From: a virus
Strand: one strand, 5' to 3'
IMG/VR virus record: IMGVR_UViG_3300027909_000035
DNA length: 46,186 nt
Shown here in pieces: positions 8,747 through 46,186 of the stretch; positions within the stretch are counted from its first letter, which is position 1, and each line of letters starts with the position of its first letter. The notes beneath the pieces were generated by a model. It had not been told where the DNA came from. It did not search any database and saw only the letters and a program-made list of their open reading frames with translations. A program made the translations under genes and the position numbers.

Positions 8747-8756
8747 AGGGGTGATC

Positions 8757-10064: not shown

Positions 10065-10919
10065 GTGATGATAAACAAGCACACACGGGCATTGCTGGAT
10101 TTCAAATCCAAGTTGTTTGACCGAGTCCAGTTGCGTAATGCTGACCTGGCACACGCGTTGAGGGATATTCGCCTTGACTGGTACCGAATTTCCAACGTGG
10201 CAGAGGATGAGGAAAAGGCAGAGGTCTTCATCTATGATGAAATCGGCGGATCGTTCGGTGTGGACGCAACCGAATTCGTTACGGAGCTTAAGGCCCTGGA
10301 CGTGAAGGAAATCACGGTTCGCATCAATTCACCAGGCGGAAGCCTGTTTGACAGCATCGCAATTCACAACGCATTGGTGCAGCACAAGGCGAAAATCATT
10401 ACTCGCATAGATGCGCTGGCAGCCTCGGGAGCGTCAATCATTGCTATGGCCGGTGATGAAGTCGAGATGATGAACGGCTCACAGCTCATGATTCATGACG
10501 CGTTGGGTTTTGAGCTTGGTAACGCCGCTGCTTTCGAGGCCATGGCAAGGTTCCTGAACTTGCAATCAGACAACATTGCCGATATGTACAAGGCAAGGGC
10601 AGGCGGGACACGTGAGGAATGGCGCTCTCGCATGCTGGCGGAAACGTGGATGTTTGCCGATGAAGCAATTGAACTTGGATTGGCTGACAAGGTGTACGTG
10701 AAGCCTGCCCCACCCGATGACGGTGAAGAAGAAATCGTTACGGAGGTCGAGAACACGGTATCTGAGGAATTGGATATCTCAGCGCTCATCATCCGACCGC
10801 ATCGTGTTGACAATCGTGGGTTCAAGTACGCGGGTCGTGAGGATGCCCCATCCCCTGTCAACTCATCAGATCCATGGAATGAAGTTCGTGCCCTAGTGGC
10901 CACTTGGAAAGAAAGGTAA
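10065..10919 (+). CDS. Prohead protease, ClpP/S14-like
   Basis: INSPGGSLFDSIAIHNAL, AASGASIIAMAGDE and MIHDA are ClpP-family signatures. AGGAGGGGAG RBS. Confidence 0.85.
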   Translation: MMINKHTRALLDFKSKLFDRVQLRNADLAHALRDIRLDWYRISNVAEDEEKAEVFIYDEIGGSFGVDATEFVTELKALDVKEITVRINSPGGSLFDSIAIHNALVQHKAKIITRIDALAASGASIIAMAGDEVEMMNGSQLMIHDALGFELGNAAAFEAMARFLNLQSDNIADMYKARAGGTREEWRSRMLAETWMFADEAIELGLADKVYVKPAPPDDGEEEIVTEVENTVSEELDISALIIRPHRVDNRGFKYAGREDAPSPVNSSDPWNEVRALVATWKER

Positions 10920-26760: not shown

Positions 26761-26860
26761 GGGGAAGTAGCTCAGTGGTAGAGCAGATATGACCTGGTGC
26801 CCATATCGTCAAGGTTTTTGGGAAGGGACCTTGAGCTAGGTTCGATTCCTAGCTTCCCCA
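26761..26860 (+). tRNA. tRNA-like element with an aberrant, expanded anticodon/variable region (isotype undetermined)
   Basis: Perfect 7-bp acceptor stem GGGGAAG/CTTCCCC, D arm GCTC-AGTGGTA-GAGC, T arm CTAGG-TTCGATT-CCTAG, discriminator A. The 50 nt in between form two hairpins (GATATG/CATATC with a 10-nt loop; TCAAGGT/ACCTTGA with a 12-nt loop). Confidence 0.5.
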
Positions 26861-27794: not shown

Positions 27795-29726
27795 ATGACT
27801 CCAATACATATCGAGAAAAAAGGTAAGCGGATCGTCCTCAAAACGGATGGTCCGCTTCCTGGTATTCGCTCCGCGATACCTGGTGCTTATGAGTCGGCCA
27901 CAGGGCAATGGACTGTGCCCCTGAACTATGAGACATGCAAACTACTTCAAGCCAAATACAAAAAGCGTTTGCGTGTCGGCATGGAGTTACGCCGTTGGGC
28001 AACTGGTGTCCGCAACTCTCGGGACTCCATGTCCACCTTGGCTGCCTCTAAAAATGCCAAGCTCGATCACGTAAAGGATGAGGCACCCGTTCTCTTCAGA
28101 CTCATGAAGCAACGCAAGTATCAGAAGGTTGGCGCGCGTTTCGTTGCCGACAATCCCGCTACCGGTATTTTCGATGAGCCTGGTTTGGGCAAGACGTTGA
28201 TAGCCATCGGCGGAATTATCGAGGCGCAAATACCCGGACCCTACGTAGTCATTGCCCCTAAGACAGCCGCTAAGCCTGTCTGGCAGCGTGAAATCCGTCG
28301 GCTACTTCCTAGGTGGCACAAGCCGGTTACGTTCCCTGACGGATGGTCTCAACGGGATTGGAAGCTACGCCGGACAGTGATGGACGAACACACATGGATA
28401 ATCGTTCACCCGGAAATGGTCATGGTCCGGACCATGCTTATCTGCCATCGTTGCGGTAAGAGTTGCCAGCTAACCAATAAGACGAAACGCAAGTTGGCAT
28501 GCAACCACAAGAAGGATCGAAAAACCAAAAAGATTGACGTACCAACCTTCAAGCGGCTGTTCGAGATCGATTGGGGTGCAGTCATTATCGATGAATCCCA
28601 TGACAGCCTCATTCACAGAGGGAGCATCCCGACATTACGCCGCAACGGAATGGACAAGCTCAGACTTCGATCGGACGGTATCAAGCTGGCCATGTCCGGC
28701 ACGCCCATGAACAGCATGCCTCATCACCTGTGGGGTACGCTCAACTGGCTCGACCCTATTGCATATCCGGCGTTCCACCGTTGGGCGGAACTGTTCTGGA
28801 AAAAGGGTGGCTACACAGGTTGGGCTATAGGGGATTTCATCAAGGAACGTGAGCCTTTGCTATGGGACTCTTTAGCTTCCATTTCCCTTCGGCGGACGAA
28901 GCTTGAAGTTGCAAAAGATTTGCCACCCAAGATGGAAATAGGCACGCCACTCGACCCCCACGACGAAGACAGCCCAATAGGTATTTGGCTTGAGATGGAA
29001 GGGAAGCAAGCCAAGGCATACAATCAAATGTTTGAAACCTCAGTATCAGAGCTTAAATCCGGCCGGTTGATGGCGACAACCGCACTGGCTGAACTGACCA
29101 GGCTGAAGCAATTTGCAAGCTCATACGGTAACGTCACATGGCTAGACAAGGCTGACGGCACGCGCAAACAGAAGTTCTACCCTACACTTCCATCCAATAA
29201 ATTCCGTTGGGTGGTCGAGACATTGGAAGAGTGGGGGTACCCGAAAGACCCTATAGACAAAGTGGTGTTCGTCAGTTTCTATACTGGACTGCTAGAAATG
29301 TTCATGGCAGCATTGGAAAAGCATTTCAAGACCAAACCAGGTAAACCGCTATGTTCTGCAATCACGGGCAAGGTCGGCTCTTCCACCAAGCGCGCCAAGA
29401 TAATTGAACGCTTCAACAGCAGTGGCCATGAGCACCTGTTGATGCTGAATGTGAAAGCAGGCGGGACAGCAATTACAATCGACAGCGCTTCACGAACTAT
29501 TTTCCTAAGTGAGACAAGGATTCCTGACCAACAAATACAAGCAGAGGATAGGACCCACAGGGTCAGCAACCCAAGGCAATGCATGTATTACTACCTTCGT
29601 TCCCTTGGCACAGTTGACGTTGGTACCGCAATAGCTAACAAGGAACTGGCGCACGATTCATTTCGATTACTCGATGAAAGGCGGGGAGTCGAGTACCTAC
29701 GATATGTGATTGACCACAGTAAATAG
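27795..29726 (+). CDS. SNF2-family helicase/ATPase
   Basis: Motifs GLGKT, IIDESHD and AGGTAITIDSA...QAEDRTHR. Carries a Cys-rich insert CHRCGKSC...CNH. Confidence 0.85.
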   Translation: MTPIHIEKKGKRIVLKTDGPLPGIRSAIPGAYESATGQWTVPLNYETCKLLQAKYKKRLRVGMELRRWATGVRNSRDSMSTLAASKNAKLDHVKDEAPVLFRLMKQRKYQKVGARFVADNPATGIFDEPGLGKTLIAIGGIIEAQIPGPYVVIAPKTAAKPVWQREIRRLLPRWHKPVTFPDGWSQRDWKLRRTVMDEHTWIIVHPEMVMVRTMLICHRCGKSCQLTNKTKRKLACNHKKDRKTKKIDVPTFKRLFEIDWGAVIIDESHDSLIHRGSIPTLRRNGMDKLRLRSDGIKLAMSGTPMNSMPHHLWGTLNWLDPIAYPAFHRWAELFWKKGGYTGWAIGDFIKEREPLLWDSLASISLRRTKLEVAKDLPPKMEIGTPLDPHDEDSPIGIWLEMEGKQAKAYNQMFETSVSELKSGRLMATTALAELTRLKQFASSYGNVTWLDKADGTRKQKFYPTLPSNKFRWVVETLEEWGYPKDPIDKVVFVSFYTGLLEMFMAALEKHFKTKPGKPLCSAITGKVGSSTKRAKIIERFNSSGHEHLLMLNVKAGGTAITIDSASRTIFLSETRIPDQQIQAEDRTHRVSNPRQCMYYYLRSLGTVDVGTAIANKELAHDSFRLLDERRGVEYLRYVIDHSK

Positions 29727-29817
29727 CACCAGGTAAACACCATGTTGACAGCAATTCGGGCAGCCTGTAGCGTCGTTGCCCACCTGCACCAAACCGATTT
29801 TAGGAGGATGTACCCCG

Positions 29818-30528
29818 ATGGCGAAGACAAACCCCAAGGCAAGTAAAAAGCCGAAGCGTGACCCGAAACTCACTGCCCTGGCGGACAAGGAAGCCACTCA
29901 GTATCAGAAGTGGTTTGCCCGCTGGATCACTACGGAGGTTGGCTACGATCCAGCTTCGGCGGACTCGAAGAAGGCAGCCTTCCTGGCGGGTATCCGGTTG
30001 GCGCTCACGAGCCGGTCGGCCTTCATGGAAAGTGATTTCCTTGAGGAAATGCGGGAGAAGCACGGCGTTCAGAAGCGCGGTCCCAAGCCCAAGGCCAAGG
30101 ATGAGGACGACGCACCCAAGGGGAAGAAGTCGAAAAAGAAGAAGTCCAAGGATGAGGACGACGAAGAGGAAGACTTCGAAGAGGATGAGGACGAAGACTT
30201 CGAAGAGGATGATGAGGAAGAGGACGACGAAGACACAGAAGACGATGACGAGGAAGAGGACGAAGAGGAAGACGACGAAGACGAGGACGACGAAGAAGAA
30301 GAGGATGACGAGGAAGAGGACGACGAAGAGCCTGCCCCGCCTAAGAAATCCAAGGGAAAGAAGGCTGTAGCGAAGAAAGCTCCGGCCAAGAAACCCGCAA
30401 AGAAGGCTGACAAGCCTGTCAAGAAAGCCGCACCAGCAAAGAAGGCAACTTCCAAAGGGAAGAAGGCTGACACAGCCAAGAAAGGCAAGAAAAAGCCGAA
30501 GGAAGACGACGACGATTTCGTTTTCTGA
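29818..30528 (+). CDS. Poly-acidic / poly-lysine protein with an SSB-tip-like C-terminus (236 aa)
   Basis: AGGAGG RBS 10 nt upstream. A ~60-residue run of almost pure D/E (30151..30330) is flanked by K-rich segments (PAKK/AKKA repeats). The protein ends ...EDDDDFVF. Confidence 0.8.
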   Translation: MAKTNPKASKKPKRDPKLTALADKEATQYQKWFARWITTEVGYDPASADSKKAAFLAGIRLALTSRSAFMESDFLEEMREKHGVQKRGPKPKAKDEDDAPKGKKSKKKKSKDEDDEEEDFEEDEDEDFEEDDEEEDDEDTEDDDEEEDEEEDDEDEDDEEEEDDEEEDDEEPAPPKKSKGKKAVAKKAPAKKPAKKADKPVKKAAPAKKATSKGKKADTAKKGKKKPKEDDDDFVF

Positions 30529-30567
30529 GCTAACATCTAAGTTCGCAAATGTGGTAAATCAATAGCT

Positions 30568-30625
30568 CCCACGGTTGGATTAATCATCGGAAGCTTCCCC
30601 GTCTTCCTTTGGTTCCAACCGTGGG
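30568..30625 (+). other. Large stem-loop (12-bp perfect stem)
   Basis: CCCACGGTTGGA (30568..30579) pairs with TCCAACCGTGGG (30614..30625). The loop contains the palindrome GGAAGCTTCC. Confidence 0.55.
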
Positions 30626-30715: not shown

Positions 30716-31741
30716 ATGCGCAACTCACTCCCGCTTCTTCGCAGTCACGAAATAATGGATCTCAAGCGTTGCCCCAAAAAATGGTATTGGAAATGGCGCC
30801 TAGGCTTGGTACCCAAGACTAAGTCATTCGGCGCACTCGATCTAGGCACATGGGTTCATGATGCACTGGCTCACTGGTACACAACCTCAGGAAAGAAACG
30901 CACCATGGCAGGCTTGCTATGGTGCTTCGACCATTTTGCCCTGACGGCAATAAAGCAGGCGCACGGCTCTACCCCTGACCATGTGATCGCACAAGCTCAC
31001 GAGCTTCACACACTGGGTAGAGCGATGCTCGCTGCCTACGGCAAGCACTATCGGGGGGATCGTGGCTGGGATGTGGTCGGGGCAGAGATACCCCTAGAAG
31101 TCGAAATCACGGACGAACAGGGGGAGTCCAAGGGTTTGTACCGCATGAAGCTAGATCTTGCCGTACGGGAGCGTACAACGGGCGAAATATGGATCGTCGA
31201 GCACAAGACAGCCAAGGCAATTAGAACCGATCACCTCACGATCGATGGTCAGGCACGCCCGTACGGAACGCTGGCAGAGATAGCCATGAAAAGGTTGGGG
31301 ATCATCGAGCGCAAGGAATTCATTTCCGGAATCCTCTACAACTTCATTCGGAAGGCGATGCCTGATATTCGGGATGTTGATGCAAAGGGCTTGGCGCTCA
31401 ACAAAGACGGCACAGTCTCCAAGCGCCAACCATCCGCCATGTTCCTCCGCCATCGGGTGACCCTCACCAGGCGTGCCAAAGTAGTTGCCCTCAAACGGAT
31501 TCGCCATGATGTGATGACCCTCACAGACCTACGCGAGCAAGTGATATATCAGAAGGGATTTGCCGACACGTTGTCAAAAACCCCTCACTGGTCGTGCCCG
31601 AAGTTCTGTGACTTCTTCACGATGTGCGAGCTTGAGGAACAGGGCGGGAATATCACACAGCTAAGGCGGGGTACGTTCATCAAGCAGAACCCTTACGACT
31701 ATGAAACAACCGATGAGGCAATGACTTTTGAGATGGGGTAA
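30716..31741 (+). CDS. PD-(D/E)XK exonuclease, Cas4/RecB-like, with Cys cluster
   Basis: D...EIWIVEHKT core. One N-terminal Cys (LKRCPKKWYW) plus C-terminal CPKFCDFFTMC, as in Cas4/AddB Fe-S nucleases. Confidence 0.75.
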   Translation: MRNSLPLLRSHEIMDLKRCPKKWYWKWRLGLVPKTKSFGALDLGTWVHDALAHWYTTSGKKRTMAGLLWCFDHFALTAIKQAHGSTPDHVIAQAHELHTLGRAMLAAYGKHYRGDRGWDVVGAEIPLEVEITDEQGESKGLYRMKLDLAVRERTTGEIWIVEHKTAKAIRTDHLTIDGQARPYGTLAEIAMKRLGIIERKEFISGILYNFIRKAMPDIRDVDAKGLALNKDGTVSKRQPSAMFLRHRVTLTRRAKVVALKRIRHDVMTLTDLREQVIYQKGFADTLSKTPHWSCPKFCDFFTMCELEEQGGNITQLRRGTFIKQNPYDYETTDEAMTFEMG

Positions 31742-31866: not shown

Positions 31867-32250
31867 ATGTCTACTGACGAAGCACCAGACACATTGGACG
31901 TCTTGCTCGATGTTCCGACTGACTCACTCAGAAAGGTTGCATCTTGGATGGCCAATGAAGCCAGGGTATTGCGTCGAAACACAGGAAACATACTTAACGC
32001 CTCAGCAGTATCAGTCATGCTTCAGACGATTGTAGACTCTCGTGAGCAAACGCTACGCCTCTCAGCAGAATGGGAAGTGCTTGATAGCGTTCGTGTGATC
32101 GACCCCGATGGTTGGCGCGATGAGTTTGAAGCGGACGGTAAGCACTACTCGCCTCAGCCGTGGGGGACTCCAATCAATCACATCGAGTGGCGTGCCAGGC
32201 TAGTGCGCTCCACTATGGAGCCTAGAAGGTTCGATGAGCACAGCGGGTAA
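31867..32250 (+). CDS. Hypothetical protein (127 aa)
   Basis: AGGAGG RBS. ATG 31867 within track ORF 31801..32250. Confidence 0.65.
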   Translation: MSTDEAPDTLDVLLDVPTDSLRKVASWMANEARVLRRNTGNILNASAVSVMLQTIVDSREQTLRLSAEWEVLDSVRVIDPDGWRDEFEADGKHYSPQPWGTPINHIEWRARLVRSTMEPRRFDEHSG

Positions 32251-33064
32251 GCGATCGAGACGGGTGGCAACCGAACGGACTGAAATGAGCTTGGGCGAAT
32301 TCGAGGCTGAGATATTCCGCCTTGACAGCTCATCTGAGTCGAAAAACCTATTGGTGTTCGGACGTTCCAACGCTGGTAAAACTGTACTGGCAGGCACTAT
32401 ACCAGGTAAGAATTTCTGGCTGGTAGGCGAACCTGGGTACAAGACAGCGGCGAGGGTGGCCAAGGCGAAGGGGCACGGTAGGCGCATTAGGTCAACATCA
32501 GCCGCTATGGCTTCACTTGACTGGCTCATGCACAAAAACCGTTACGAGCGTTACAACTTCATCATTGTTGATGGCTTTACTTGGATGCAAGAGCACTGGC
32601 GGTTGGGTTACACGGCTGAGGCTTTCGACATCGACTCGACCAAACGCCAGCATAGGAACCTGCCGGATAAACCCGACTACTTCAATACTCAGAACTTTGC
32701 CAAGTCTTGGATGTCCGCGTTGGTAGACATGCCAGTAAACCTGTTGGTCACTGCGCATGCTTGGAAGACGGACGAAATGGAGGTTGGCACTTACATATTC
32801 CCTGGCATACAAGGAAAGGAAACAGAGGTAGCACAGACCATCGTTGGTCTGATGGACGCAACCGGTTATTTGGAAATGAAGACGCTCAAGAGCAAAAAGA
32901 CCGGAAAGGTAAGGCACATAAGGCGCATCAACTGGCAACAGCCTGATGATCCCGACGTGCAATACTTGGTAGGGGACAAGTTCAACTGTCTAGGTCAGTA
33001 CATGGACGATCCAACGATGCCAACGATCCTCGCCAGGATCGATGAGAGCGCAAGCTCGGACTAG
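32234..33064 (+). CDS. RecA-fold ATPase, AAA_24/Sak4-like
   Basis: Walker A at FGRSNAGKT and Walker B-like FIIVDGF. Typical partner of a DUF669-type SSB downstream. Confidence 0.7.
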   Translation: MSTAGKRSRRVATERTEMSLGEFEAEIFRLDSSSESKNLLVFGRSNAGKTVLAGTIPGKNFWLVGEPGYKTAARVAKAKGHGRRIRSTSAAMASLDWLMHKNRYERYNFIIVDGFTWMQEHWRLGYTAEAFDIDSTKRQHRNLPDKPDYFNTQNFAKSWMSALVDMPVNLLVTAHAWKTDEMEVGTYIFPGIQGKETEVAQTIVGLMDATGYLEMKTLKSKKTGKVRHIRRINWQQPDDPDVQYLVGDKFNCLGQYMDDPTMPTILARIDESASSD

Positions 33065-33078
33065 GAAAGGATGCTCAC

Positions 33079-33630
33079 GTGCCTACCGTGGACTGGGGAC
33101 TCTCTAAAGGAGTCATCGACGATTACGACCGGGAAAGCCAGTACAAGCCTTACACTGGCAAGCTTCCTGACAACGGCGTTTACCAATGGAAAGTCACCAA
33201 GGCGGTTTACGTCTCTGGTGGAAAGAAGAAGAACCCTCAATTGCGTGTGTCGCTGCGCCTTGACCCGCGTGACAAGTCGGAAAAGAAGTTTTCCGGATAC
33301 ACCATGATGAAGTTCATGGTCATTGCCGACACCACACCCTTTCAATATGTTCCCTTCCTTGACGCCGTTGGCGTTACTGAAGCCGACTTCAAGAAACGCA
33401 CCAAGACAGACCAGGAAGGTAACATCAGGCGCATCGGACCGTGGGTGAACGATGGCCAGACGCTCATTCTTGGTCAGCTCCAAGACAATCGGGGTGACAA
33501 CGCCGACAAGTACCCCAAGGAAATTGGGTGGGTCGGAGCGATCGATGATGCCGAAGAAGATGATGAGGAAGACTACGAAGAAGACGATGAGGAATCCGAA
33601 GACGATGACGAAGAAGAGGACGAAGACTGA
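33079..33630 (+). CDS. Putative ssDNA-binding protein (DUF669-like) with an acidic C-terminal tail
   Basis: GTG start after AAAGGA. The C-terminal ~40 residues are almost all D/E. Position is after the AAA_24-like ATPase. Confidence 0.55.
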   Translation: MPTVDWGLSKGVIDDYDRESQYKPYTGKLPDNGVYQWKVTKAVYVSGGKKKNPQLRVSLRLDPRDKSEKKFSGYTMMKFMVIADTTPFQYVPFLDAVGVTEADFKKRTKTDQEGNIRRIGPWVNDGQTLILGQLQDNRGDNADKYPKEIGWVGAIDDAEEDDEEDYEEDDEESEDDDEEEDED

Positions 33631-34534: not shown

Positions 34535-35085
34535 CGACATTCGAGCAGGGACAATGGGTCCGCCTACCTAGAACGTTGGGTTACGCAGAGGGGTACATAC
34601 GACTGGTTAGCCTTGCCGCGAACATGTGCAAGGTAGTGATTCCTGGTGCAGGTGAGCTGACCTGTGACACGGACAAGCTAACGCCGATCGAGGGTCCATC
34701 GGTTCCGGATGACGCACCACAGAAGAACCCTGACGCCAGTGAGCATCCAACCATCGAACGGCGCCCGGCGGAGGTTGACTTGGTGGTGACGTACATTCGC
34801 AACATCGAGACCGGTATCGATGTCTGCTGGTGCCCTTGGACACCCATGATGGTATCGGGACGGATGGGAAGGCTACGCACTGGCGAGCATCCCCAATGTC
34901 CGGCGCACACCAAAGAGGGATACCTGTTCAGTTTCATTGACCACGTACGGCAAGCCTTTTCGGGCAAGAAACTGATAGAGGGGAAGGGAACTGGTGCTTT
35001 GAAAGACTGGCTTGAGCAGAAAGGAGCGTTGATTGAGGAATACACGACTGAGGAAGGAAAGGCCAGTGTCCGATGGGTGGAATAG
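34531..35085 (+). CDS. Hypothetical protein (184 aa)
   Basis: ATGA overlap. Lies in track ORF 34516..35085. Confidence 0.6.
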   Translation: MTTFEQGQWVRLPRTLGYAEGYIRLVSLAANMCKVVIPGAGELTCDTDKLTPIEGPSVPDDAPQKNPDASEHPTIERRPAEVDLVVTYIRNIETGIDVCWCPWTPMMVSGRMGRLRTGEHPQCPAHTKEGYLFSFIDHVRQAFSGKKLIEGKGTGALKDWLEQKGALIEEYTTEEGKASVRWVE

Positions 35086-35669
35086 CGCTTAACGTTGACG
35101 ACGTTTACGACAGAATCCTACGGGACAAAGCGTTTTACCATTGGCAACCTGCCAAATTGGTTCCGGGGGAAGGGTCTGAAGCTAATGCTTCCGCCTTCAT
35201 CGTGGGCAGCTCACCAAGTGCGACAGACGTTGTGAATGGCAGACCGTTCACAGATGACATTGGGGCAATCCTCCGCCAGCTCATGGAGCTTGCCAACCTG
35301 CACAGTTATTTCAATGAAGGCAAGCAATACCGGCCGAACTGCTGGCTAACCCTGGTCAGCAAATACCGATCAAGCGGTATGCCATGGGAGGCAATAGAAC
35401 TATGGCGACCCTACCTCAGACAGGAGTGGTGCGCGGTAGACAACCCAATGGTGCTCATTCCCGTTGGCATGCTGGCATTCTCAGCGTGCATGGGTGAATG
35501 GCGGGACATATCAAAGTCAGCAGGATTTCCATTCAAGCGCATGACATTCTTTGGTTGGGTGTGGGTTTGGCCTATGTTCCATCCCAAAGACGGAATCAAA
35601 TTTCCGAAGCTCCGTCCAGTCATGGAAACACATTGGTCGAAGCTAGGTGAGTGGCTTGATAACCATTAA
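35073..35669 (+). CDS. Uracil-DNA-glycosylase-superfamily-like protein (family 4/5-like)
   Basis: FIVGSSPSATDVVNGRPFTDDIGAILRQLM resembles the UDG family 4 motif region (GE.PG...G.PF.G..G..L). Sits directly upstream of PolA, as in many phages. Confidence 0.55.
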   Translation: MGGIALNVDDVYDRILRDKAFYHWQPAKLVPGEGSEANASAFIVGSSPSATDVVNGRPFTDDIGAILRQLMELANLHSYFNEGKQYRPNCWLTLVSKYRSSGMPWEAIELWRPYLRQEWCAVDNPMVLIPVGMLAFSACMGEWRDISKSAGFPFKRMTFFGWVWVWPMFHPKDGIKFPKLRPVMETHWSKLGEWLDNH

Positions 35670-36825
35670 GGATACGCTACAGGGTGACCAAATCTATTTT
35701 CACTTTGTGGAGAACAAAGACGATGCCAAACGCGCTCTGCGTTGGGCGAAACGGTTCGTCGGGCAAGAACTGGGCATGGACACAGAATCAACAGGACTCG
35801 ACTGCTACCTACCCCATTGGAGGCTGCGAACCTTTCAGATTGGTAACGACATTCGAGCATTCGTCATTCCCGCCAAGTGGCGCAAGACAATTACAAATAT
35901 CTGGTCACTCGGCATCGACTGGATTGGATACAACGGACCGCATGACGTGCGTTGTGTAGACGCGTATCTCGGCTATGAGTCCGACGTGGTTTGCAAGTAC
36001 GAGGCTTACATCACAGCTCACCATCGCGAGCCACGAAAGGCGGAGGAAGGCGGCGCAGACCTTGGACTGAAAGAGCAATGCACAGCGCATATCGATCCAG
36101 CGGCCGGTAAGTGGGAAGTGGCGCTCAAGCTTGGCTTTAAGCAACTTACGGTGCCGATGCCAGGTGAGTATTACAAATCCGGACCTCGCAAGGGACAACC
36201 CAAGGTACGCAAGGCTTTGATATCTGAAGGCTGGGCAATGCAAGACATCAAGCACCCTACCTACATTGCCTACGCTGGTGCCGACCCCATACTCACATAT
36301 CGGCTCTGGCGCTTCAATGGGACCACCTACAGTCGTGCCAATGGTTTGTACGACAGGGATTTACAAATTGACTTGCTCTGTGACCGGTTGCAACGTCGGG
36401 GCATGCTCGTAGATGTGCGGTACCTTCAGCAATACCAAGCCGCACTCACGCGGCGTGCCGACCATCTGATAGAGCTGGCAGCTGTCTTGGGTTGCAATAA
36501 CATAAATTCCGGCCAACAAATTGCCGTAACCCTTTTAGAGCTAGGCGCCAAGCTGAGACTAAAAACCCCATCCGGCAAGTGGCAAATGGATAACACGGTT
36601 CTGGAAAGCTTGGCGGAAACGGGCAACCGTCCAGTGCGGAAGTTGGTCCGCTACATACTCACGGCTAGAAGGCTCAACAAACGCGCTCAGGTTTACGCAG
36701 AGGGGATGTTGAGGGCAAGGGATAGTCAGGGCAGGGTCCACCCGTCAATCAATTCTCTAGCGGCTAGAACGGGTCGCATGAGTGCCGGTATTTTCCAGCA
36801 ACTACCGACTAAGGATCAAGAGTGA
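35647..36825 (+). CDS. Family A DNA polymerase, N-terminal gene (3'-5' exonuclease plus thumb, up to the TGR(L/M)S...LP segment)
   Basis: Exo motifs DTESTGL, NGPHDVRC and YAGADPILTYRL. Ends ...HPSINSLAARTGRMSAGIFQQLPTKDQE-stop. Confidence 0.85.
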   Translation: MSGLITIKDTLQGDQIYFHFVENKDDAKRALRWAKRFVGQELGMDTESTGLDCYLPHWRLRTFQIGNDIRAFVIPAKWRKTITNIWSLGIDWIGYNGPHDVRCVDAYLGYESDVVCKYEAYITAHHREPRKAEEGGADLGLKEQCTAHIDPAAGKWEVALKLGFKQLTVPMPGEYYKSGPRKGQPKVRKALISEGWAMQDIKHPTYIAYAGADPILTYRLWRFNGTTYSRANGLYDRDLQIDLLCDRLQRRGMLVDVRYLQQYQAALTRRADHLIELAAVLGCNNINSGQQIAVTLLELGAKLRLKTPSGKWQMDNTVLESLAETGNRPVRKLVRYILTARRLNKRAQVYAEGMLRARDSQGRVHPSINSLAARTGRMSAGIFQQLPTKDQE

Positions 36826-38249: not shown

Positions 38250-38428
38250 AGCTGAAACTAGAGCTATGTGCAGGCGTTGACTGGCGTGACGTTAGAGTCA
38301 CCTCTGACCCTTCACTGCTGATCTACTGTAACCATCTGTGGTTTGACACTACCGGGTTCATACACCTTTGCTCGGACTATAAAGAGCACCCTAGAGAGCA
38401 CATATGCCAATGCTGTGAGCAATCATGA
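38246..38428 (+). CDS. Cys/His-rich small protein (60 aa), cassette ORF 7
   Basis: ORF track (GTG start overlapping the preceding TGA). Its stop overlaps the ATG of the pol C-gene. Confidence 0.45.
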   Translation: MKLKLELCAGVDWRDVRVTSDPSLLIYCNHLWFDTTGFIHLCSDYKEHPREHICQCCEQS

Positions 38429-39273
38429 AACTCCTTTCCAGTGCGGCAGTCAGGCGAGCCATCGTCGCAGAGGTTGGTCACGCCATCATCTCGTGTGACT
38501 ATGACCAAATTGAATTGCGTGTGGCAGCCGCTTTGGCAAGGGAGCAAGCACTTATAGAAGCGGCTGAGCGCGGGGAGTCTCTTCACAAGATTGCAGCCGT
38601 AAAACTCTTCGGAGAGGATTACACGCCAGACCAGTACCGCTATACCAAAAATGTCAACTTCGGTTGGCTCTATGGAGGCGGGGCATTCACGCTCTCACAG
38701 CAGGCGGGTATTCCCTTTGAAGTGGCTCAAGAAATCATCGTGCAATACCGCGAAGAATTCCCCGCGCTCACAAGGTACAAGCGCCAGCAGCAAGACAAGC
38801 TGATTCGCGGTGCACTGACCCCAAACGAATACAGGCTTTACCGCTCACTACGTTCAGAGATGTTCGAATACCGGCAAGACACTCCGTCAGGCAGGTTGGC
38901 AATAGCCAAGGTGCGGCACCGCATTAACAACCTGATGGAGTGGAAAGTCGGTTACATCACAACGGATTACGGCCGTAGGTTGCCGGTCGAATTGATGAAG
39001 GCTTACAGGGTCGTGAACTACGAAATACAGTCCACAGCAAGGGATATCATGTGTGATGGGCTGATCGCTGTCATGGCCGATCCTGAGCTAGCGTCAACCG
39101 TTCTACTTCCCATCCACGATGAATTGCTAGGCCAGGCTCCAAGGTGGAAAGCCAAGCGCGTTGCCAGACGGTACGGCGAGGTTATGAGCACCCAATTCCG
39201 AGGCGTGCCGATTACGGCTAGCGGCAAAGTGTACGGCGACTCTTGGGGACATGGATACATGAGGGCAGCATGA
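38425..39273 (+). CDS. Family A DNA polymerase, C-terminal gene (palm/fingers, motifs A, B, C)
   Basis: Motif A at SCDYDQIELRVAA, motif B at RYTKNVNFGWLYGGG, VNYEIQSTARD, motif C at LPIHDELL. Confidence 0.9.
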   Translation: MKLLSSAAVRRAIVAEVGHAIISCDYDQIELRVAAALAREQALIEAAERGESLHKIAAVKLFGEDYTPDQYRYTKNVNFGWLYGGGAFTLSQQAGIPFEVAQEIIVQYREEFPALTRYKRQQQDKLIRGALTPNEYRLYRSLRSEMFEYRQDTPSGRLAIAKVRHRINNLMEWKVGYITTDYGRRLPVELMKAYRVVNYEIQSTARDIMCDGLIAVMADPELASTVLLPIHDELLGQAPRWKAKRVARRYGEVMSTQFRGVPITASGKVYGDSWGHGYMRAA

Positions 39274-41319: not shown

Positions 41320-43617
41320 TTGCCTAGGTCCGGAGGATTCCTCTACAGCTCTTCAGTTTTTTCGAAAGGATGTGCTCTCACCGTGGGCGGCCAGAATAGC
41401 ACGAGCAGCCAACACGACCAAATCTCGCCTTGGCACTTAGCCGCTGAGGATTACCTTTCTGCTGGATACATGCCGTTTCCCCTGCCCCTTGGGCGGAAGT
41501 CACCTCCACCTAAGAACGTGACCGGAGGTATCGAACACAATTTCGAACAGCATACACAGTTGGTTGCCGGATGGTTACAGGATGATGAACCGAGAAACAT
41601 CGGGATCGTGATTCCTTCCAACATGGTCGTACTCGATGTGGATGGGGCTGAGGCAGAGAAACGGCTTACCGACTACCTTGGTGACATCCCGACCACATGG
41701 GCAAGCTCAAGCGGACGCGAGAACCGGTATCACCTCTGGTACCAAACACCGAACGATCGAACATGGCCAGGGAAAATTGTTGCTGGCGTCGATGTACTGC
41801 AACACCATCATCGTTACCTGGTGGTACCGCCTAGCGTGCACCCTTCCGGCAAGCTGTATCGATTTCTGAGCCCACGTAAAAGCGTGGCCTGGCACATCCC
41901 CACCCTTGAGGAATTAAACATCGTCAGCAACCGTCTCCTACGGGAAACCAGACGGGGCAAATTCGTTCCATACGAGCGCGCTCAACTGGATACCCGGTTA
42001 TGGCTGACTGAACACGGTAAGGGGAAGCTGTGCCCTGAGCTAAGGCGGGTAGTGTCCCAACACCAACGGCTTTTGAGGAAACATGCTGCACTGGGCGGAA
42101 TGCATGACGCCATGACAAACGGTGTGTGGGCAATCCTGGCTGAAATTTCCCATGGCCACCTTGGCGGGTACCAAGCTCTCAAGCGCTTCAAGGAAACCTT
42201 CCTAGAGCAGGCTGCCGAAACCGGCCGTAGGTCCGGCTACGAATCAAAGGCTGAGTGGGGTAGGGCATGCGTTGGTGCCATTGAAAAAACCGCAATCGAG
42301 CGGGTACGGATCGGTGACCCTTGCCTGATCGAGGAAGAGGAAAGAGATAAAGACCCTGACCGATTCTTTGACGGCAAGCACGGCATCAAAGCTATTTCGC
42401 TGCAAAGGGCAGTGGAGCGCACAGGCAGGCTAGAGCCTGGTCCGGGCAAAGCTATTTACCGGCACTATGACGGTGTGTGGTCACCGGACGGTGAGTCTGA
42501 GATTTACCGTAGGGTTCAAAAACTTTTGAAGGAACGTGCTCGACCTAACCACGCGACCATGGTGAAAACCTTTGTAGAGCATAGGGAACCGTTCATCACC
42601 GATGAGCGAGAGGACACCCGTTACCTCAACCTACCCAATGGTCTATTGGACTGGCGCACAGGGAGACTTGAGCCACACAACGCCAATATCGTTACCACCA
42701 TTAGGATTCCGGTTGCTTGGGATGAGGACGCTGAGTGCCCCTTGATCCTAGATTGGCTGAGGGATGTATTCGCTTATGACGCAACAGAATTTGCTCTCGA
42801 AGTATTGGGATACATGTTATACAACGCTAATCCCTTGCACAAAGCCATATTGCTTTACGGCACTGGACGAAATGGAAAATCGACCTTCCTCAAACTCGCT
42901 ACAATGCTTGCCGGACATAACAATGTGTCTGCCGTTACACCCCAAGCAATCGATGATAATAGATTCGCTGCTGCCCAGATACACGGAAAGCTTGCAAATC
43001 TGGCCGGGGACGTCGATCCTCGTATCTTCAAGTCAACGGAACGCTTTAAACAACTTACTGGGGGAGATTGGATGATGGTCGAGCATAAAAACCGTGACCC
43101 GTTTACGTTTGTGTGCCGTGCCCTCATGATTGCTTCCTTCAATGCCTTGCCTCGCACGGCGGACACCACAGACGCTTTCTTCTCACGCTGGCTGGTGCTG
43201 CCCTTCCCCAAGACGTTCACAAATCCCGACATCCACCTTATTCACAGATTGGCACCCGAGATACCAGGGTTGCTGAGAATGGCGGTAGAGCGGCTGAAGA
43301 ACGTCATTGAGCGCGGTCATTTCGTCTTGCCGGTAACCGTGAAGGAAGCCACGGATAGGTTCCGTGCCGAGGCTGACCCGTTGCGAGCGTTCATAGCCGA
43401 AAGAATAGAGTGGACTGGCTTACCCGAATTCATTTCTAGGAATGACGTCTACGCCGAATATGCAATGTGGGCAGCGCAGAATGGGTTCTCTGCAATGTCG
43501 TCCATGCGCTTTTATGAGGCTGTTGGCCACACTTTGGTCCCCGCTCTTGAGCGTCCCGTACCCGCCTCGCTCCGGCACGGGTATCAGGGTTGGCGCGGCA
43601 TAAGAATTAGAAAATGA
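41320..43617 (+). CDS. Bifunctional primase-polymerase (Prim-Pol) / D5-P4-type SF3 helicase
   Basis: N-terminal Prim-Pol motifs (VVLDVDG, YHLWYQ, LVVPPSVHPSGKLYRF) and C-terminal Walker A GTGRNGKST. The start is uncertain (41320 is TTG; an in-frame GTG lies at 41383). The last 82 nt lie inside TIR-R. Confidence 0.85.
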   Translation: MPRSGGFLYSSSVFSKGCALTVGGQNSTSSQHDQISPWHLAAEDYLSAGYMPFPLPLGRKSPPPKNVTGGIEHNFEQHTQLVAGWLQDDEPRNIGIVIPSNMVVLDVDGAEAEKRLTDYLGDIPTTWASSSGRENRYHLWYQTPNDRTWPGKIVAGVDVLQHHHRYLVVPPSVHPSGKLYRFLSPRKSVAWHIPTLEELNIVSNRLLRETRRGKFVPYERAQLDTRLWLTEHGKGKLCPELRRVVSQHQRLLRKHAALGGMHDAMTNGVWAILAEISHGHLGGYQALKRFKETFLEQAAETGRRSGYESKAEWGRACVGAIEKTAIERVRIGDPCLIEEEERDKDPDRFFDGKHGIKAISLQRAVERTGRLEPGPGKAIYRHYDGVWSPDGESEIYRRVQKLLKERARPNHATMVKTFVEHREPFITDEREDTRYLNLPNGLLDWRTGRLEPHNANIVTTIRIPVAWDEDAECPLILDWLRDVFAYDATEFALEVLGYMLYNANPLHKAILLYGTGRNGKSTFLKLATMLAGHNNVSAVTPQAIDDNRFAAAQIHGKLANLAGDVDPRIFKSTERFKQLTGGDWMMVEHKNRDPFTFVCRALMIASFNALPRTADTTDAFFSRWLVLPFPKTFTNPDIHLIHRLAPEIPGLLRMAVERLKNVIERGHFVLPVTVKEATDRFRAEADPLRAFIAERIEWTGLPEFISRNDVYAEYAMWAAQNGFSAMSSMRFYEAVGHTLVPALERPVPASLRHGYQGWRGIRIRK

Positions 43618-43695
43618 CGGGGGTAATTTGACGGTTATGAATTTGAGGGTGTTCATTTCGAGCACCCTCATTTTTAATACCCTATTTTATTGATG

Positions 43696-43829
43696 ACCAT
43701 CTATCGGGGTGAGAGAGGGTGCGCCAGGTGAGGCAAACCAAACTGCTAGATACGAGGTAAACAAACACAATTGATACTCATCTATGCGTTGGTTCCCTAG
43801 CAATATGGAAGTGCTCACCTGGCACACCC
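43696..43829. repeat. Long imperfect inverted repeat / 134-nt hairpin
   Basis: GGGGTGAGAGAGGGTGCGCCAGGTGAG (43696..43722) against CTCACCTGGCACACCCATCTCACCCC (43804..43829): 24 pairs, 2 mismatches and 1 unpaired base. Further pairing is possible inside the 81-nt spacer (AACCAA/TTGGTT). Confidence 0.6.
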
Positions 43830-44085
43830 ATCTCACCCCAAGATCAACTCTGCGAAATGTATTCGGCTAGATTAATATATATTGTGATATATATCTCAAT
43901 TTATTTCGTTGGGAGCAACAATTAATTCTCTTTACTATTAGTGCAAGATCACGCGCGCAATAATAAATAAACTTAAATGAAAAAGTCCAGTGATGATCTT
44001 CGATGTTTCGCTCCTCCCCCACAGAGGCGAACTATTAAAATCTGGGTCCACATTGGACACCCAGAAATACTAGGTCAATCATCCA

Positions 44086-44115
44086 TTGACAGGAATAAGC
44101 TACGTCACCTAGTCT
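44086..44115 (+). promoter_or_regulatory. Candidate promoter of the outward TIR operon
   Basis: TTGACA (44086..44091) - 18 nt - TAGTCT (44110..44115). Bracketed by TACTAGGT at 44068..44075 and 44118..44125. Confidence 0.35.
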
Positions 44116-44155
44116 GGTACTAGGTTGTAATAGGTTTCCAGAGGAAGAGGTCAAC

Positions 44156-44350
44156 ATGAAAGTCTGGGCATTGTTCGTCAAGTTCAAAGGTGGAGCTGCT
44201 GAGTTCCTGCCGGACGGTTGGGTGTTTCAGGGGATGGTCACGGACGCTCAGACCCTCAACAGGACCGTTGACGCCATACGGCAGGAAATATCCATCACGC
44301 GAGGCATGGATAACCGTACCGTTGCTTACAAGGTGGTCGAGCTGTCGTGA
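44156..44350 (+). CDS. Hypothetical small protein (64 aa)
   Basis: ORF track. GAGGAAGAGG RBS. Confidence 0.6.
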   Translation: MKVWALFVKFKGGAAEFLPDGWVFQGMVTDAQTLNRTVDAIRQEISITRGMDNRTVAYKVVELS

Positions 44351-44499
44351 GGGTCCCGCCTGCCACGCTCAACATCTTTTGGTGCAACCACTGCGGTCGC
44401 ACTGAGGTCTACAACCCCTACCGGCACTACTACCAGGGGAAATGGTGCCCTGGAAAGGTGCTCACGCTCAGCTATGCCAAACAGGAGGAAGAGAAATGA
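44347..44499 (+). CDS. Zinc-ribbon-like mini-protein (50 aa)
   Basis: GTG start overlapping the preceding TGA. Contains WCNHCGRTEVYNP...KWCPG. Its stop overlaps the next ATG. Confidence 0.35.
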   Translation: MRVPPATLNIFWCNHCGRTEVYNPYRHYYQGKWCPGKVLTLSYAKQEEEK

Positions 44500-44732
44500 G
44501 TTTCCGATGCAATCTCACGCTGCGCCTGCTGGCCTACGCCTTTGCCCTGGTGCTACTCATGCTGTTGGCCGGTTGTCCCATCCCACGGGATGCGCACCCC
44601 GAGCGCTCCCCTCAGCACACCACATGCCGCTACTCGGAAGACCCTAACCTGAACACCTGCCCCATACCCTCACCAGGGCTTCAGACCGGCAGGCAACCCG
44701 CTCCTACGGCAACGCCAGAGGGCAGGAAATGA
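44496..44732 (+). CDS. Putative lipoprotein (78 aa)
   Basis: AGGAGG RBS. Signal peptide with lipobox: MSFRCNLTLRLLAYAFALVLLMLLAGC. Lies in track ORF 44442..44732. Confidence 0.6.
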   Translation: MSFRCNLTLRLLAYAFALVLLMLLAGCPIPRDAHPERSPQHTTCRYSEDPNLNTCPIPSPGLQTGRQPAPTATPEGRK

Positions 44733-44733
44733 T

Positions 44734-44892
44734 ATGACTCAGACAGAGGCCAGAAAGCTTGCCGCACAACGGAAAGCTCTAGGTTCACCGGCAGTTGCCG
44801 GAGCCTACCCACTCGACTCATGGGGAGGGAAAGAGGAATGCTGGGCTGTCTACATGCTGACCTCCAGTGCCCTCAAGCTGTGGAGAAAATGA
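44734..44892 (+). CDS. Hypothetical small protein (52 aa)
   Basis: Hand-translated MTQTEARKLAAQRKALG... Starts 1 nt after the preceding stop; its stop overlaps the next ATG. Confidence 0.4.
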   Translation: MTQTEARKLAAQRKALGSPAVAGAYPLDSWGGKEECWAVYMLTSSALKLWRK

Positions 44893-45128
44893 TGTGGATG
44901 TACAAGGCCGGTTACCAGTCACCGAATCGGGAAACCATTTCCCACTACATGGAGATTACCGCTGACCACACTGGGCCTTGGCACACATCCATCTGTAGTC
45001 ATCTATCGGCAGAGAGGGCAGATCTGTTGCCACACAATGGAAACGCTGCCGTTAAGTGCAGGCTCTGCTCAGACATCCTGCAAGGTCGAGAGAAGATCGA
45101 GGGACTGAGGAAACGATGGTCGAAATGA
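44889..45128 (+). CDS. Hypothetical Cys/His-containing protein (79 aa)
   Basis: ATGA overlap start within track ORF 44820..45128. Contains ...SICSH...KCRLCSD... Confidence 0.5.
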   Translation: MMWMYKAGYQSPNRETISHYMEITADHTGPWHTSICSHLSAERADLLPHNGNAAVKCRLCSDILQGREKIEGLRKRWSK

Positions 45129-45361
45129 ATGGGGTTCGGTTGGGCACCTGGCGACGACTGCTCACAGCCTGCTTTAAACCAGCACCAGGCACCGCCAACG
45201 TTGCTCACAAGGTCCGAGCCATCCTCAATGACGGGCTAGCCTGGCTGGCTGAGTGTGGAAGGGAATTCATTACCAACGACACCACGCCGGACGACGTCGC
45301 ACCGCGTTGCCCTGGCTGTTACAAGGCGATTAAGGACGGTGGGAAGCATGCCACAAAGTAA
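45116..45361 (+). CDS. Small protein, GTWRR...RCPGC (paralog A, 81 aa)
   Basis: Start within track ORF 45056..45361. Shares GTWRR, (E/Q)EF.T, TP(D/E) and RCxxC with the next gene. Confidence 0.55.
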   Translation: MVEMNGVRLGTWRRLLTACFKPAPGTANVAHKVRAILNDGLAWLAECGREFITNDTTPDDVAPRCPGCYKAIKDGGKHATK

Positions 45362-45593
45362 GCCGATGGAACAGGGCACCTGGCGCAGAGGGGCAATTAA
45401 TCCCCCCGACGCTCCTATAATCACTCACCTGGTGGTGGATGGGTATGGGTTCGGGGATGCTTTTTATCAGACAGCGTGTGATGCGGTGCAGGAATTCGCC
45501 ACTACCGTACGCGATGAGACACCCGAAAACCGTTGTGGCGCATGCAAAGTGCAGGAACCAATCTATAAGACTGTATGGGAGCAACCATGGTAA
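45348..45593 (+). CDS. Small protein, GTWRR...RCGAC (paralog B, 81 aa)
   Basis: Start within track ORF 45255..45593. Tandem paralog of 45116..45361. Confidence 0.55.
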   Translation: MPQSKPMEQGTWRRGAINPPDAPIITHLVVDGYGFGDAFYQTACDAVQEFATTVRDETPENRCGACKVQEPIYKTVWEQPW

Positions 45594-45811
45594 TCCCTGG
45601 TAGGCAAGGGGACTGGCGTATTCTGTCGAGGGGCACCGACCCCAAGGCAGGCGACCCCTGGATAGACCGAACAGCTTCTCTCGGCGAAAACCCTGACCTG
45701 CAAACGGTTTTGAGCACCCTATTTCGCTGGCAGGACTCAAACCAACACGTCCGCGTTGAATGGGTACCCTTGGGTGTGGAGCTGACCGGAGACGAGTACG
45801 CCACTGATTGA
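45587..45811 (+). CDS. Hypothetical small protein (74 aa)
   Basis: GGGAG RBS. ATG 45587 within track ORF 45575..45811. Last gene before the terminus. Confidence 0.5.
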   Translation: MVIPGRQGDWRILSRGTDPKAGDPWIDRTASLGENPDLQTVLSTLFRWQDSNQHVRVEWVPLGVELTGDEYATD

Positions 45812-45829
45812 CAGCAACCAATTAGATAG

Positions 45830-45861
45830 CCCTTCGGTTCCGGCCGGAGGGTTATTTATTT
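45830..45861 (+). terminator. Rho-independent terminator of the TIR operon
   Basis: CCCTTCGG/CCGGAGGG stem followed by TTATTTATTT. Confidence 0.55.
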
Positions 45862-46186
45862 GTGTGAGAATTATCACAATAATTAATTCGACTGTCCACT
45901 TTAGACCGCGACTACTCAGTGTGACATTACTCAGAGTAAATGGAATAATATTCTTTAGTTTATGCATAAAACTAACTCTGTTTACCAAAAAGTAAGGGTT
46001 CTTTACAATGCTTCCAGGCATTTGACCAGGGAAAATAGGCCGCGATGGATGCACGCCGAGTTAGTTTAGAGCAACAATTAATTGCCTTAACTAATACTCC
46101 ACGAATAAAAATGCAATAGTAAACAGACTTTACAATACGCAGAGTGACTGTCCGATTTGGACCAATCAGCTAAGAATCTTGAAAAT

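Follow-up and report, generated by a model that had tools for sequence, protein, structure and literature searches.

Protein X, a phage protein with segregated charge tracts and an acidic-aromatic tip, and its conserved place in an actinophage recombination module

We describe a gene in a 46,186-nucleotide (nt) stretch of viral DNA, IMG/VR record IMGVR_UViG_3300027909_000035, which we refer to as the window. The gene is the open reading frame (ORF) 29818..30528, and it encodes a protein of 236 amino acids (aa) plus a stop, which we call protein X. Coordinates between 27795 and 33630 are on the plus strand unless the minus strand is named. Directly upstream of X is an SNF2-family helicase (27795..29726; Pfam SNF2-rel_dom and Helicase_C, phrog_62 at 4e-82), and downstream of it a PD-(D/E)XK (Cas4-like) exonuclease (30716..31741; Pfam PDDEXK_1, phrog_1218 at 1e-64). 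There follow an AAA_24/Sak4-like RecA-core ATPase, a candidate single-stranded DNA (ssDNA) annealase (32234..33064; Pfam AAA_24, and phrog_124 at 9e-24, a family annotated as "Sak4-like ssDNA annealing protein"), and an acid-tailed protein of 183 aa (33079..33630), which we call the partner. Downstream of the partner gene are a UDG-family gene (35073..35669), a family-A polymerase in two parts and a prim-pol/D5 primase-helicase (41320..43617). The window genome is siphovirus-like, and its marker genes all point to actinobacterial hosts. The terminase shares 47% identity with its counterparts in Streptomyces phage Dagobah and Thermobifida phage P1312, and the SNF2 helicase is about 35% identical to genes labelled "DNA helicase" in Gordonia, Mycobacterium and Rhodococcus phages. 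The reading frame of X is conserved in 10 metagenomic loci and in 154 cluster representatives; protein X is a real gene of a real conserved family.

A model had previously commented on this DNA from its letters and ORFs, and much of what this sequence-only reading said about the layout of the protein agrees with what we find. It named a strong ribosome-binding site, and there is an AGGAGG Shine-Dalgarno box, read from the sequence, at 29802..29807, 10 nt 5' of the ATG; two relatives, L002 and L004, have an AGGAGG box at similar spacing before their X homologs. It took residues 1-90 for a folded domain, which holds for a five-helix domain at aa ~16-85 and fails for aa 1-15 (MAKTNPKASKKPKRD; 29818..29862), a K/R-rich basic tail with low values of the predicted local distance difference test (pLDDT). 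The family-defining region, delimited by an AlphaFold2 (AF2) model and by profile search, is the helical N-terminal domain together with a KRGPKPK motif, at aa 16-92 (29863..30093). A K-rich linker at aa 91-111 (30088..30150; net charge +6, pLDDT <50) includes a short DEDD and leads into the acidic block, exactly as had been described: 60 residues at aa 112-171 (30151..30330), of which 57 are D or E by count (32 E and 25 D) and the other three are F120, F128 and T140. The codons of the block are imperfect GAN repeats. Next comes PAPP, a Pro-x-Pro hinge, and then a Lys/Ala/Pro-rich basic block (together aa 172-228, 30331..30501; net +23 by composition count) with 25 K, 13 A and 8 P in PAKK/AKKA repeats. 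The earlier estimate for this stretch was about 55 residues, and it has 57. The protein ends in EDDDDFVF (aa 229-236, 30502..30525), an acidic-aromatic tip as in the rest of the family. The whole protein has a net charge of -25.

Both charge tracts are far beyond chance. In a binomial model with the composition of the window's own proteome (12.3% D+E and 5.0% K), the probability of at least 57 D/E in 60 residues is 3.6e-48, and that of at least 25 K in 57 residues is 5.7e-18. A six-frame translation of the window has only one other D/E tract, at 33520..33630, which is the tail of the neighbouring partner protein. The charges in the tail of X are strongly segregated, with a kappa-like index of 0.70, while shuffled tails have a mean of 0.18 and a maximum of 0.32. 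On the minus strand, the GAN codons of X also produce a 155-aa poly-Ser ORF (30069..30536). This ORF has no independent support, since it is the reverse-complement reading of those codons and the homologs conserve the plus-strand frame.

A strong stem-loop lies 3' of the X stop codon (30568..30625; -38.9 kcal/mol for a 122-nt stretch, z = -4.3). Hairpins also follow the X stop in L002 (~8752-8797, z = -2.5, followed by UUUU) and in L001 (~10497-10546, z = -3.0), so that in three phages the position is kept while the sequences are unrelated. Placed ahead of the nuclease gene, the hairpin probably serves to terminate or to stabilise the transcript. A simple promoter and terminator scan around the X gene returned nothing useful, the loop of the hairpin being too large for that scan.

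The X family emerges when its N-terminal domain is used as the query. A word-indexed protein search yielded a single homolog when queried with the one sequence and five when queried with a profile; such an index is too insensitive for this family and an exhaustive HMMER run was needed. The first homolog, P0001, has the same five-part layout with shorter tracts, ends in DDDDDDDEFLF, and matches the N-domain profile at E = 1.7e-44. Viral and metagenome collections yield eight more distinct complete relatives, from soil and groundwater, with the same layout and the end DDD[DE]F[LVM]F. The exhaustive HMMER search with the N-domain profile finds 154 representatives of clusters at 50% identity at E<=1e-3, and 52 at E<=1e-10. 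None of the 154 has a name in Pfam, in NCBIfam or in its source; all are "hypothetical protein". Pfam, PHROGs and NCBIfam scans of X itself give low-complexity matches only (phrog_20988, phrog_10064 and an RNase E tail), and megablast of the module against GenBank phages gives no match. The earlier statement that this layout is uncharacterised is borne out across Pfam, NCBIfam, PHROGs and the Protein Data Bank (PDB).

The family includes two forms. Long forms, 61 proteins counting the window protein, have a median length of 236 aa and a median net charge of -20, and come from contigs with a GC content of 49-58%. The 86 short-form representatives, whose median length is 156 aa, come from actinophage contigs of about 65% GC; they keep the N-domain, have linkers rich in Ala/Pro/Lys or in Glu/Arg/Lys, and end in [DE][DE]APF or AAF. 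The acidic block is absent from 86 of the 147 complete proteins counted. In seven short-form proteins (P0098, P0126, P0127, P0130, P0141, P0146 and P0147) an extra N-terminal domain of about 100 aa precedes the X head, with a motif such as "...A.RI..IA..HG....P...G.V.V.Y". Recognisable X heads are present in 43 cultured actinophages, each time labelled "hypothetical protein". Mycobacterium phage Onyinye gp67, with a reduced head, an E/R/K-rich linker and the end SAAEF, looks like a remote member. The family is restricted to phages and essentially absent from cellular genomes. Against 185,579 species-representative cellular genomes, the long-form patterns have no match, and the short-form patterns match only two contigs (L020 and L021, of 4.6 and 1.5 kb), both binned into one Acidobacteriota metagenome-assembled genome, DATIPO01. 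These two contigs may be mis-binned phage DNA or a hint of a host.

The tip is the best conserved feature of the family after the N-domain, which supports the attention that the sequence-only reading had given to this SSB-tip-like end (SSB, single-strand DNA-binding protein). In 151 proteins (150 listed representatives and the window protein), the terminal residue is F in 131, Y in 10 and W in 2, that is, aromatic in 143, and it comes after acidic residues; F/W/Y overall have a frequency of only 5.5%. Proteins without an aromatic end are mostly truncated fragments. The median number of K/R in the last eight positions is zero. In long forms the tip logo is A-D-D-D-[ED]-F-[LIV]-F, with the terminal F in 55 of 58, and in short forms it is [AE]-E-A-P-F, or [DE]-A-P-F as a consensus. 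As another source of the [LIV]-F end we considered the sliding-clamp-binding motif QL[SD]LF, which seems improbable: the Gln and the second hydrophobic residue are missing, and short forms have A-P-F.

Between head and tip, the order of the parts is kept and their lengths are not. In 54 of 59 long-form proteins the order is N-extension, head, acidic block, basic segment and tip, and 42 of the 59 have a Pro-x-Pro hinge between the acidic and the basic block. The N-extension has a median of 33 aa and a charge of +9, the basic segment a median of 41 aa and a charge of +12, and the acidic block (in the 61 long forms) a median of 40 aa with a range of 26-61. The commonest residue other than D/E in the acidic blocks is Phe (128 F, against 86 S and 60 A), and it almost always has an acidic residue on either side. 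Between two relatives of 96% identity, nearly all differences are small in-frame indels in the acidic and basic tracts. The linker is a blocky acid/base type, a PAKK-like type, or, in Onyinye gp67 and Krampus gp42 for example, an E/R/K-rich type. Such variable chemistry beside a constant head, tip and gene position is what one expects of a tether.

For the head, the AF2 model (from a multiple sequence alignment of 79 sequences) has five helices and no strands, with a mean pLDDT of 92.2 and a predicted template modelling score (pTM) of 0.76. Residues 88-229 have pLDDT <50 and are predicted to be disordered; the structure and disorder prediction that the sequence-only reading had proposed as a check thus gives a confident head and a disordered tail. 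Foldseek finds no neighbour of the head model in the PDB (best E = 7) or in BFVD (best E = 2), and an hmmsearch of the PDB with the 79-sequence profile returns nothing credible, the best match being a designed protein at E = 0.01. As modelled, the X head is an orphan fold. The profile, seeded by the window protein, has the motifs PT.Y[HQ]K.FA.W, GYDP, AF..G and R..F..S. Across loci the head is conserved to a degree (55-84%) comparable to that of the SNF2 helicase (57-77%), and it is more conserved than the exonuclease or the partner protein.

The place of X in the genome is strictly conserved. The order SNF2, X, PD-(D/E)XK, AAA_24/Sak4, partner is found in the window and in L001, L004/5, L007-10 and L012-15, and in the cultured Streptomyces phage Wentworth, Microbacterium phage Krampus and Arthrobacter phage Wollypog. 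It recurs in every locus with enough sequence, including those of short forms that are about 40% identical in the head.

The partner consists of a folded head of about 150 aa and an acidic tail, and its gene directly follows the Sak4-like gene at all loci checked. The end of the partner is usually SSB-like, ...PF; its relatives end in DDDPF, PDPF, PTPF, EDEPPF, DDETPF, GEPPF, EEDEY or DDDGF. These ends, together with the common position of a phage SSB gene next to sak4 (as in phage HK620), make the partner the best SSB candidate in the module; this assignment, a candidate one, comes from synteny and tail ends. No canonical SSB is recognised among 18 scanned ORFs of the window, mostly from the replication region. 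The window partner itself ends in ...EEEDED, and relatives 72-83% identical to it end in ...EEDEY, ...EDAF and ...DDGF. Its last codon (33625-33627) is GAC (Asp), where L019 has TAC (Tyr), a single T-to-G change. Because the window partner has no terminal aromatic residue, X is the only protein of the module here that keeps an acidic-aromatic tip.

In some lineages, X and the partner, two unrelated heads, appear from sequence comparison to have tail modules in common. Some X relatives have one or two Rho_N/SAP (HeH) motifs inserted in their acidic tails, with Pfam Rho_N (PF07498) scores above threshold in P0025 (48.5 bits), P0042 (40.4 bits) and P0035 (29.1 bits). The window protein X has neither Rho_N nor SAP (PF07498, PF02037) in a Pfam scan. 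An HeH module flanked by "ILDxEFP" is common to X tails and the tail of the Krampus partner, gp46 (L022, 7645-8682). When X tails are compared with the gp46 tail by blastp with low-complexity masking, E ranges from 1.6e-7 to 3e-3; these are pairwise E-values from a small search space. A similar motif in Wentworth gp63 was a visual impression, with a negative Pfam scan and a marginal blastp match (E = 0.06), and we do not use it.

That an acidic, aromatic-ended tail can act as an interaction hub is a known principle. In phage T7, gp4 carries an acidic Phe-terminated tail, so that T7, with gp2.5 and gp4, resembles the X module, with X and the partner, in having more than one module protein with such a tail. 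The acidic tails of SSB, gp2.5 and HMGB1 are autoinhibitory, and the tails of H1 and HupB are Lys-Ala-Pro-rich and bind DNA. The T7 gp2.5 tail makes contact with a basic patch of the polymerase, and the C-terminal Phe of gp2.5 is indispensable, according to work cited in PMC12339929. X has no sequence or profile similarity to gp2.5, and a helical head where gp2.5 has an OB fold.

X resembles bacterial SSB, whose acidic tip is DDDIPF or DDEPPF, in its disordered linker, its acidic run and C-terminal Phe, in having the tip as the most conserved part of the tail, and in its context of DNA recombination and replication. The short forms, ending in [DE][DE]APF, come near the mycobacterial SSB tip, DDEPPF (PMC3575820). 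X differs from SSB in its orphan, all-helical head of about 65 aa, which is not an OB fold and has no SSB match in Pfam or NCBIfam, and in the 60-aa poly-D/E and 57-aa Lys-rich linker blocks, which are not known from any canonical SSB. The HK620 system includes a Sak4-type ATPase encoded in the same module, as here. HK620 Sak4 needs the last six SSB residues, NDYPPF, for annealing and for binding to SSB-coated ssDNA, and a phage SSB gene commonly neighbours sak4 (PMC5928155). This requirement for a terminal hexapeptide makes the Sak4-like ATPase of the window a concrete candidate receptor for the X tip. The protein that HK620 Sak4 reads is a bona fide OB-fold SSB encoded beside sak4; X has a different head, and the nuclease gene stands between it and the ATPase gene.

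DSS1/Sem1, a cofactor of BRCA2, RPA and RAD52 that acts in recombination, is like X disordered, highly acidic and studded with aromatic residues. It is a proposed DNA mimic that would weaken RPA's hold on ssDNA, and it stimulates RAD52 annealing (PMC6954417). There is no homology between the two, and DSS1 has no folded head, Lys-rich block or SSB-like tip; the analogy is mechanistic only. HMGB1, H1 and HupB are further proteins to compare, since poly-D/E and Lys-rich tracts in one chain make intramolecular masking plausible, and the PAKK repeats of X resemble the H1 and HupB tails. Neither an HMG box nor an H1 winged helix nor an HU fold is present in X, and its charge is strongly negative; the likeness is compositional.

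From what the sequences show (a family of set architecture, an invariant tip, synteny, and tail modules found in both X and the partner) we propose a role for X. The family looks like an SSB tail put on a different head, with a folded anchor, a variable tether and an invariant acidic-aromatic tip. The tail-like tip and a position in a module with a known class of tip reader (Sak4) lead us to propose X as an accessory adaptor of the phage recombination/replication module, whose SSB-type tip docks on tip-reading proteins and whose acidic/Phe block is a nucleic-acid mimic or an autoinhibitor of the Lys segments. We put this forward tentatively, as plausible and somewhat short of an even chance. 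What X binds, and in which direction it regulates, we infer throughout. The module would comprise the SNF2 helicase, the Cas4-like exonuclease, the Sak4-like annealase ATPase and the acid-tailed SSB-like protein, with X as a hub subunit, and would serve phage DNA recombination and replication restart. The head would anchor X to one of the components, the first candidate being the SNF2 helicase encoded directly upstream. The tip EDDDDFVF would dock in a basic/hydrophobic pocket of the kind that reads SSB-type tips; HK620 Sak4, which needs the last six SSB residues, and T7 polymerase, which reads the gp2.5 tail, are the parallels. The Lys-rich segments would contact DNA non-specifically. The 60-residue D/E(F) block would be an intramolecular competitor or a nucleic-acid mimic that keeps the Lys segments, or the DNA-binding cleft of a partner protein, off DNA until engaged, in parallel to the autoinhibitory acidic tails of SSB, gp2.5 and HMGB1 and to the proposed DNA mimicry of DSS1. 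The sequence-only reading had suggested that the opposite charges could neutralise each other and act as a switch, which would fit the conserved order of the charge blocks.

Several findings weigh against the adaptor proposal. The family has members with non-aromatic ends, Wentworth gp68 (...DEDDLG) and Wollypog gp45 (...AAAAEA). The long-form tip, F-[LIV]-F, is unlike the canonical I/P-P-F of SSB. Because the acidic block is missing from the short forms, it is not part of the core function of the family. Some related phages with an SNF2/Cas4/RecA-like module seem to have no X, among them Rhodococcus phage MacGully (from a reading of three of its four small ORFs), and the core reaction may therefore not need the protein. 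For the head no relative is detected, and its role as an anchor is a guess. Nor do searches name the partner: a PDB profile search and Pfam find nothing, PHROGs gives only unnamed families, and hhalign of the partner with T7 gp2.5 gives a probability of 3%.

A bolder reading makes X a "trans-acting SSB tail" and a recombination mediator of a sort not known from bacteria or other phages. Here the acidic/Phe block would mimic ssDNA and displace the SSB-like partner, or the SSB of the host, from DNA that has been resected, and the strand would then pass by way of the tip to the Sak4-like annealase or to the SNF2 helicase. We consider this reading unlikely. If it were true, an orphan helical fold would give viruses their own analogue of the DSS1-type DNA mimicry of eukaryotes, and X would supply the only tip of the module where the partner has lost its aromatic residue.

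Equally unlikely, in our view, is that X is directed at the host, as a decoy in which the SSB-like tip and the repeated DDDF-like units sequester or redirect clients of the host SSB tail. The targets would be repair helicases, nucleases, primosome proteins, UDG or ClpX, and the outcome host takeover or evasion of SSB-linked defences. The restriction of the family to phages suits this idea, as do marker genes that all point to actinobacterial hosts and the abundance in the acidic blocks of Phe flanked by D/E, which provides many tip-like units. Those internal DDDF units, on the other hand, are without the free carboxylate that most pockets for the SSB C-terminus read, and the long-form tip F[LIV]F is not known as a close copy of any SSB tip. 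In favour of the decoy, the short-form tips, [DE][DE]APF, resemble the mycobacterial SSB tip, DDEPPF (PMC3575820). The conserved head, and a gene strictly placed in the recombination module of the phage itself, speak instead for a function integrated into that of the phage.

The Lys-rich tracts raise another explanation, which we rate as decidedly doubtful: a histone-like nucleoid protein with Lys/Ala/Pro tails that bind DNA as those of H1 and HupB do and an acidic block that tunes the affinity, so that replicating phage DNA is coated and organised. The PAKK-type block with 25 K in 57 aa and the basic N-terminal tail fit this explanation, the same tail in relatives contains genuine Rho_N/SAP motifs, which bind nucleic acid, and an abundant transcript would be consistent with the strong hairpin that follows the gene. 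The net charge, at -25 for X and a median of -20 for long forms, does not fit, and the basic tracts can have any of many lengths and give way in relatives to E/R/K-rich or Ala-rich linkers. An HU/IHF domain (Bac_DNA_binding) or an H1 domain is not found in X by Pfam at E<=0.01, and the head has no PDB neighbour. The resemblance to HU and H1 that the sequence-only reading had pointed to is one of composition, and membership in either family is not supported. The explanation also leaves the invariant acidic-aromatic tip without a role.

X might instead be the SSB of the phage, with a non-OB helical head on a classical linker and tip. Its organisation of head, disordered linker and acidic tip is SSB-like, the head is strongly conserved, and the 18 scanned ORFs of the window, mostly in the replication region, contain no recognised canonical SSB. 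By reading of the sequences, the head is all-helical, about 65 aa long, and near-neutral or acidic in most members. The usual position of a phage SSB, next to the Sak4-like gene, is held by the partner (PMC5928155). These points make it very unlikely that X is itself the SSB. We give as little credence to a condensate scaffold, in which the blocky polyampholyte tail would coacervate and concentrate replication and recombination proteins and DNA in a phage "factory", much like RNase E, with its charge-patterned disordered C-terminal region, in BR-bodies. The charge segregation (0.70 against 0.18 in shuffles) and the conserved alternation of charge blocks would suit such a scaffold. X also matches the tail of mycobacterial RNase E weakly, by composition, and BR-bodies assemble via the disordered region of RNase E (PMC13405055). 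This evidence is compositional only and the short forms lack the charge blocks; the strong net negative charge would, moreover, disfavour homotypic coacervation unless a cationic partner took part.

Least probable of all is the Ocr/ArdA-type anti-restriction or anti-defence mimic that the sequence-only reading had put forward, with a poly-D/E block imitating the DNA backbone and blocking DNA-targeting enzymes, for although acidic DNA mimics are an established phage strategy and the block is 57/60 D/E, neither Pfam nor PHROGs nor a fold search links X to Ocr or ArdA, the block is predicted to be disordered and not a rigid B-DNA-shaped surface, it is missing from 86 of 147 complete proteins, the gene sits among replication and recombination genes and not among early anti-defence genes, and the conserved head and tip are left unexplained.

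Returning to X as an adaptor, we find no description in the literature that we searched of the head fold, the family, its fixed place in the actinophage module, the sharing of tails by two heads, or the extreme charge-block form. We regard X as an unnamed core gene of a very common actinophage recombination module, consisting of SNF2 helicase, Cas4-like nuclease and Sak4/RecA-like ATPase. If the tip works as proposed, the SSB-tail principle would be a portable module that phages put on different heads, which would change the annotation of such modules and the reconstitution of phage recombination systems. Phage annealases, those of the Sak4 type included, are in use for recombineering, and how well they work is governed by their cognate SSB tails; a further cofactor with such a tail may be one of the things that recombineering in actinobacteria still lacks. 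The conserved charge-block tail would also be a clean natural test case for polyampholyte autoinhibition or DNA mimicry.

Other features of the window stand apart from X. The family-A DNA polymerase is split into 35647-36825 (N-terminal part and exonuclease) and 38425-39273 (palm and fingers), with a 226-aa ORF (weak PHROG match to "GTP-binding domain") and a 125-aa ORF between the halves; the polymerase is split likewise in L001 and L019. The window, which is an entire JGI contig, begins and ends with a perfect (100%) inverted terminal repeat (ITR) of 2,651 bp, at 1-2651 and 43536-46186. The right arm begins 82 nt before the end of the prim-pol/D5 gene, and the left arm holds an inverted copy of the 3' end of that gene. 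The repeat could be a genuine long ITR or a fold-back artefact of assembly or amplification. ARAGORN calls no tRNA in the window. Rfam RF00005 matches 26761-26860 on the plus strand with 47 bits, and this tRNA-like gene has perfect acceptor, D and T arms and 46 nt in place of the 17-nt anticodon arm; it may be an intron-containing or a disrupted tRNA.

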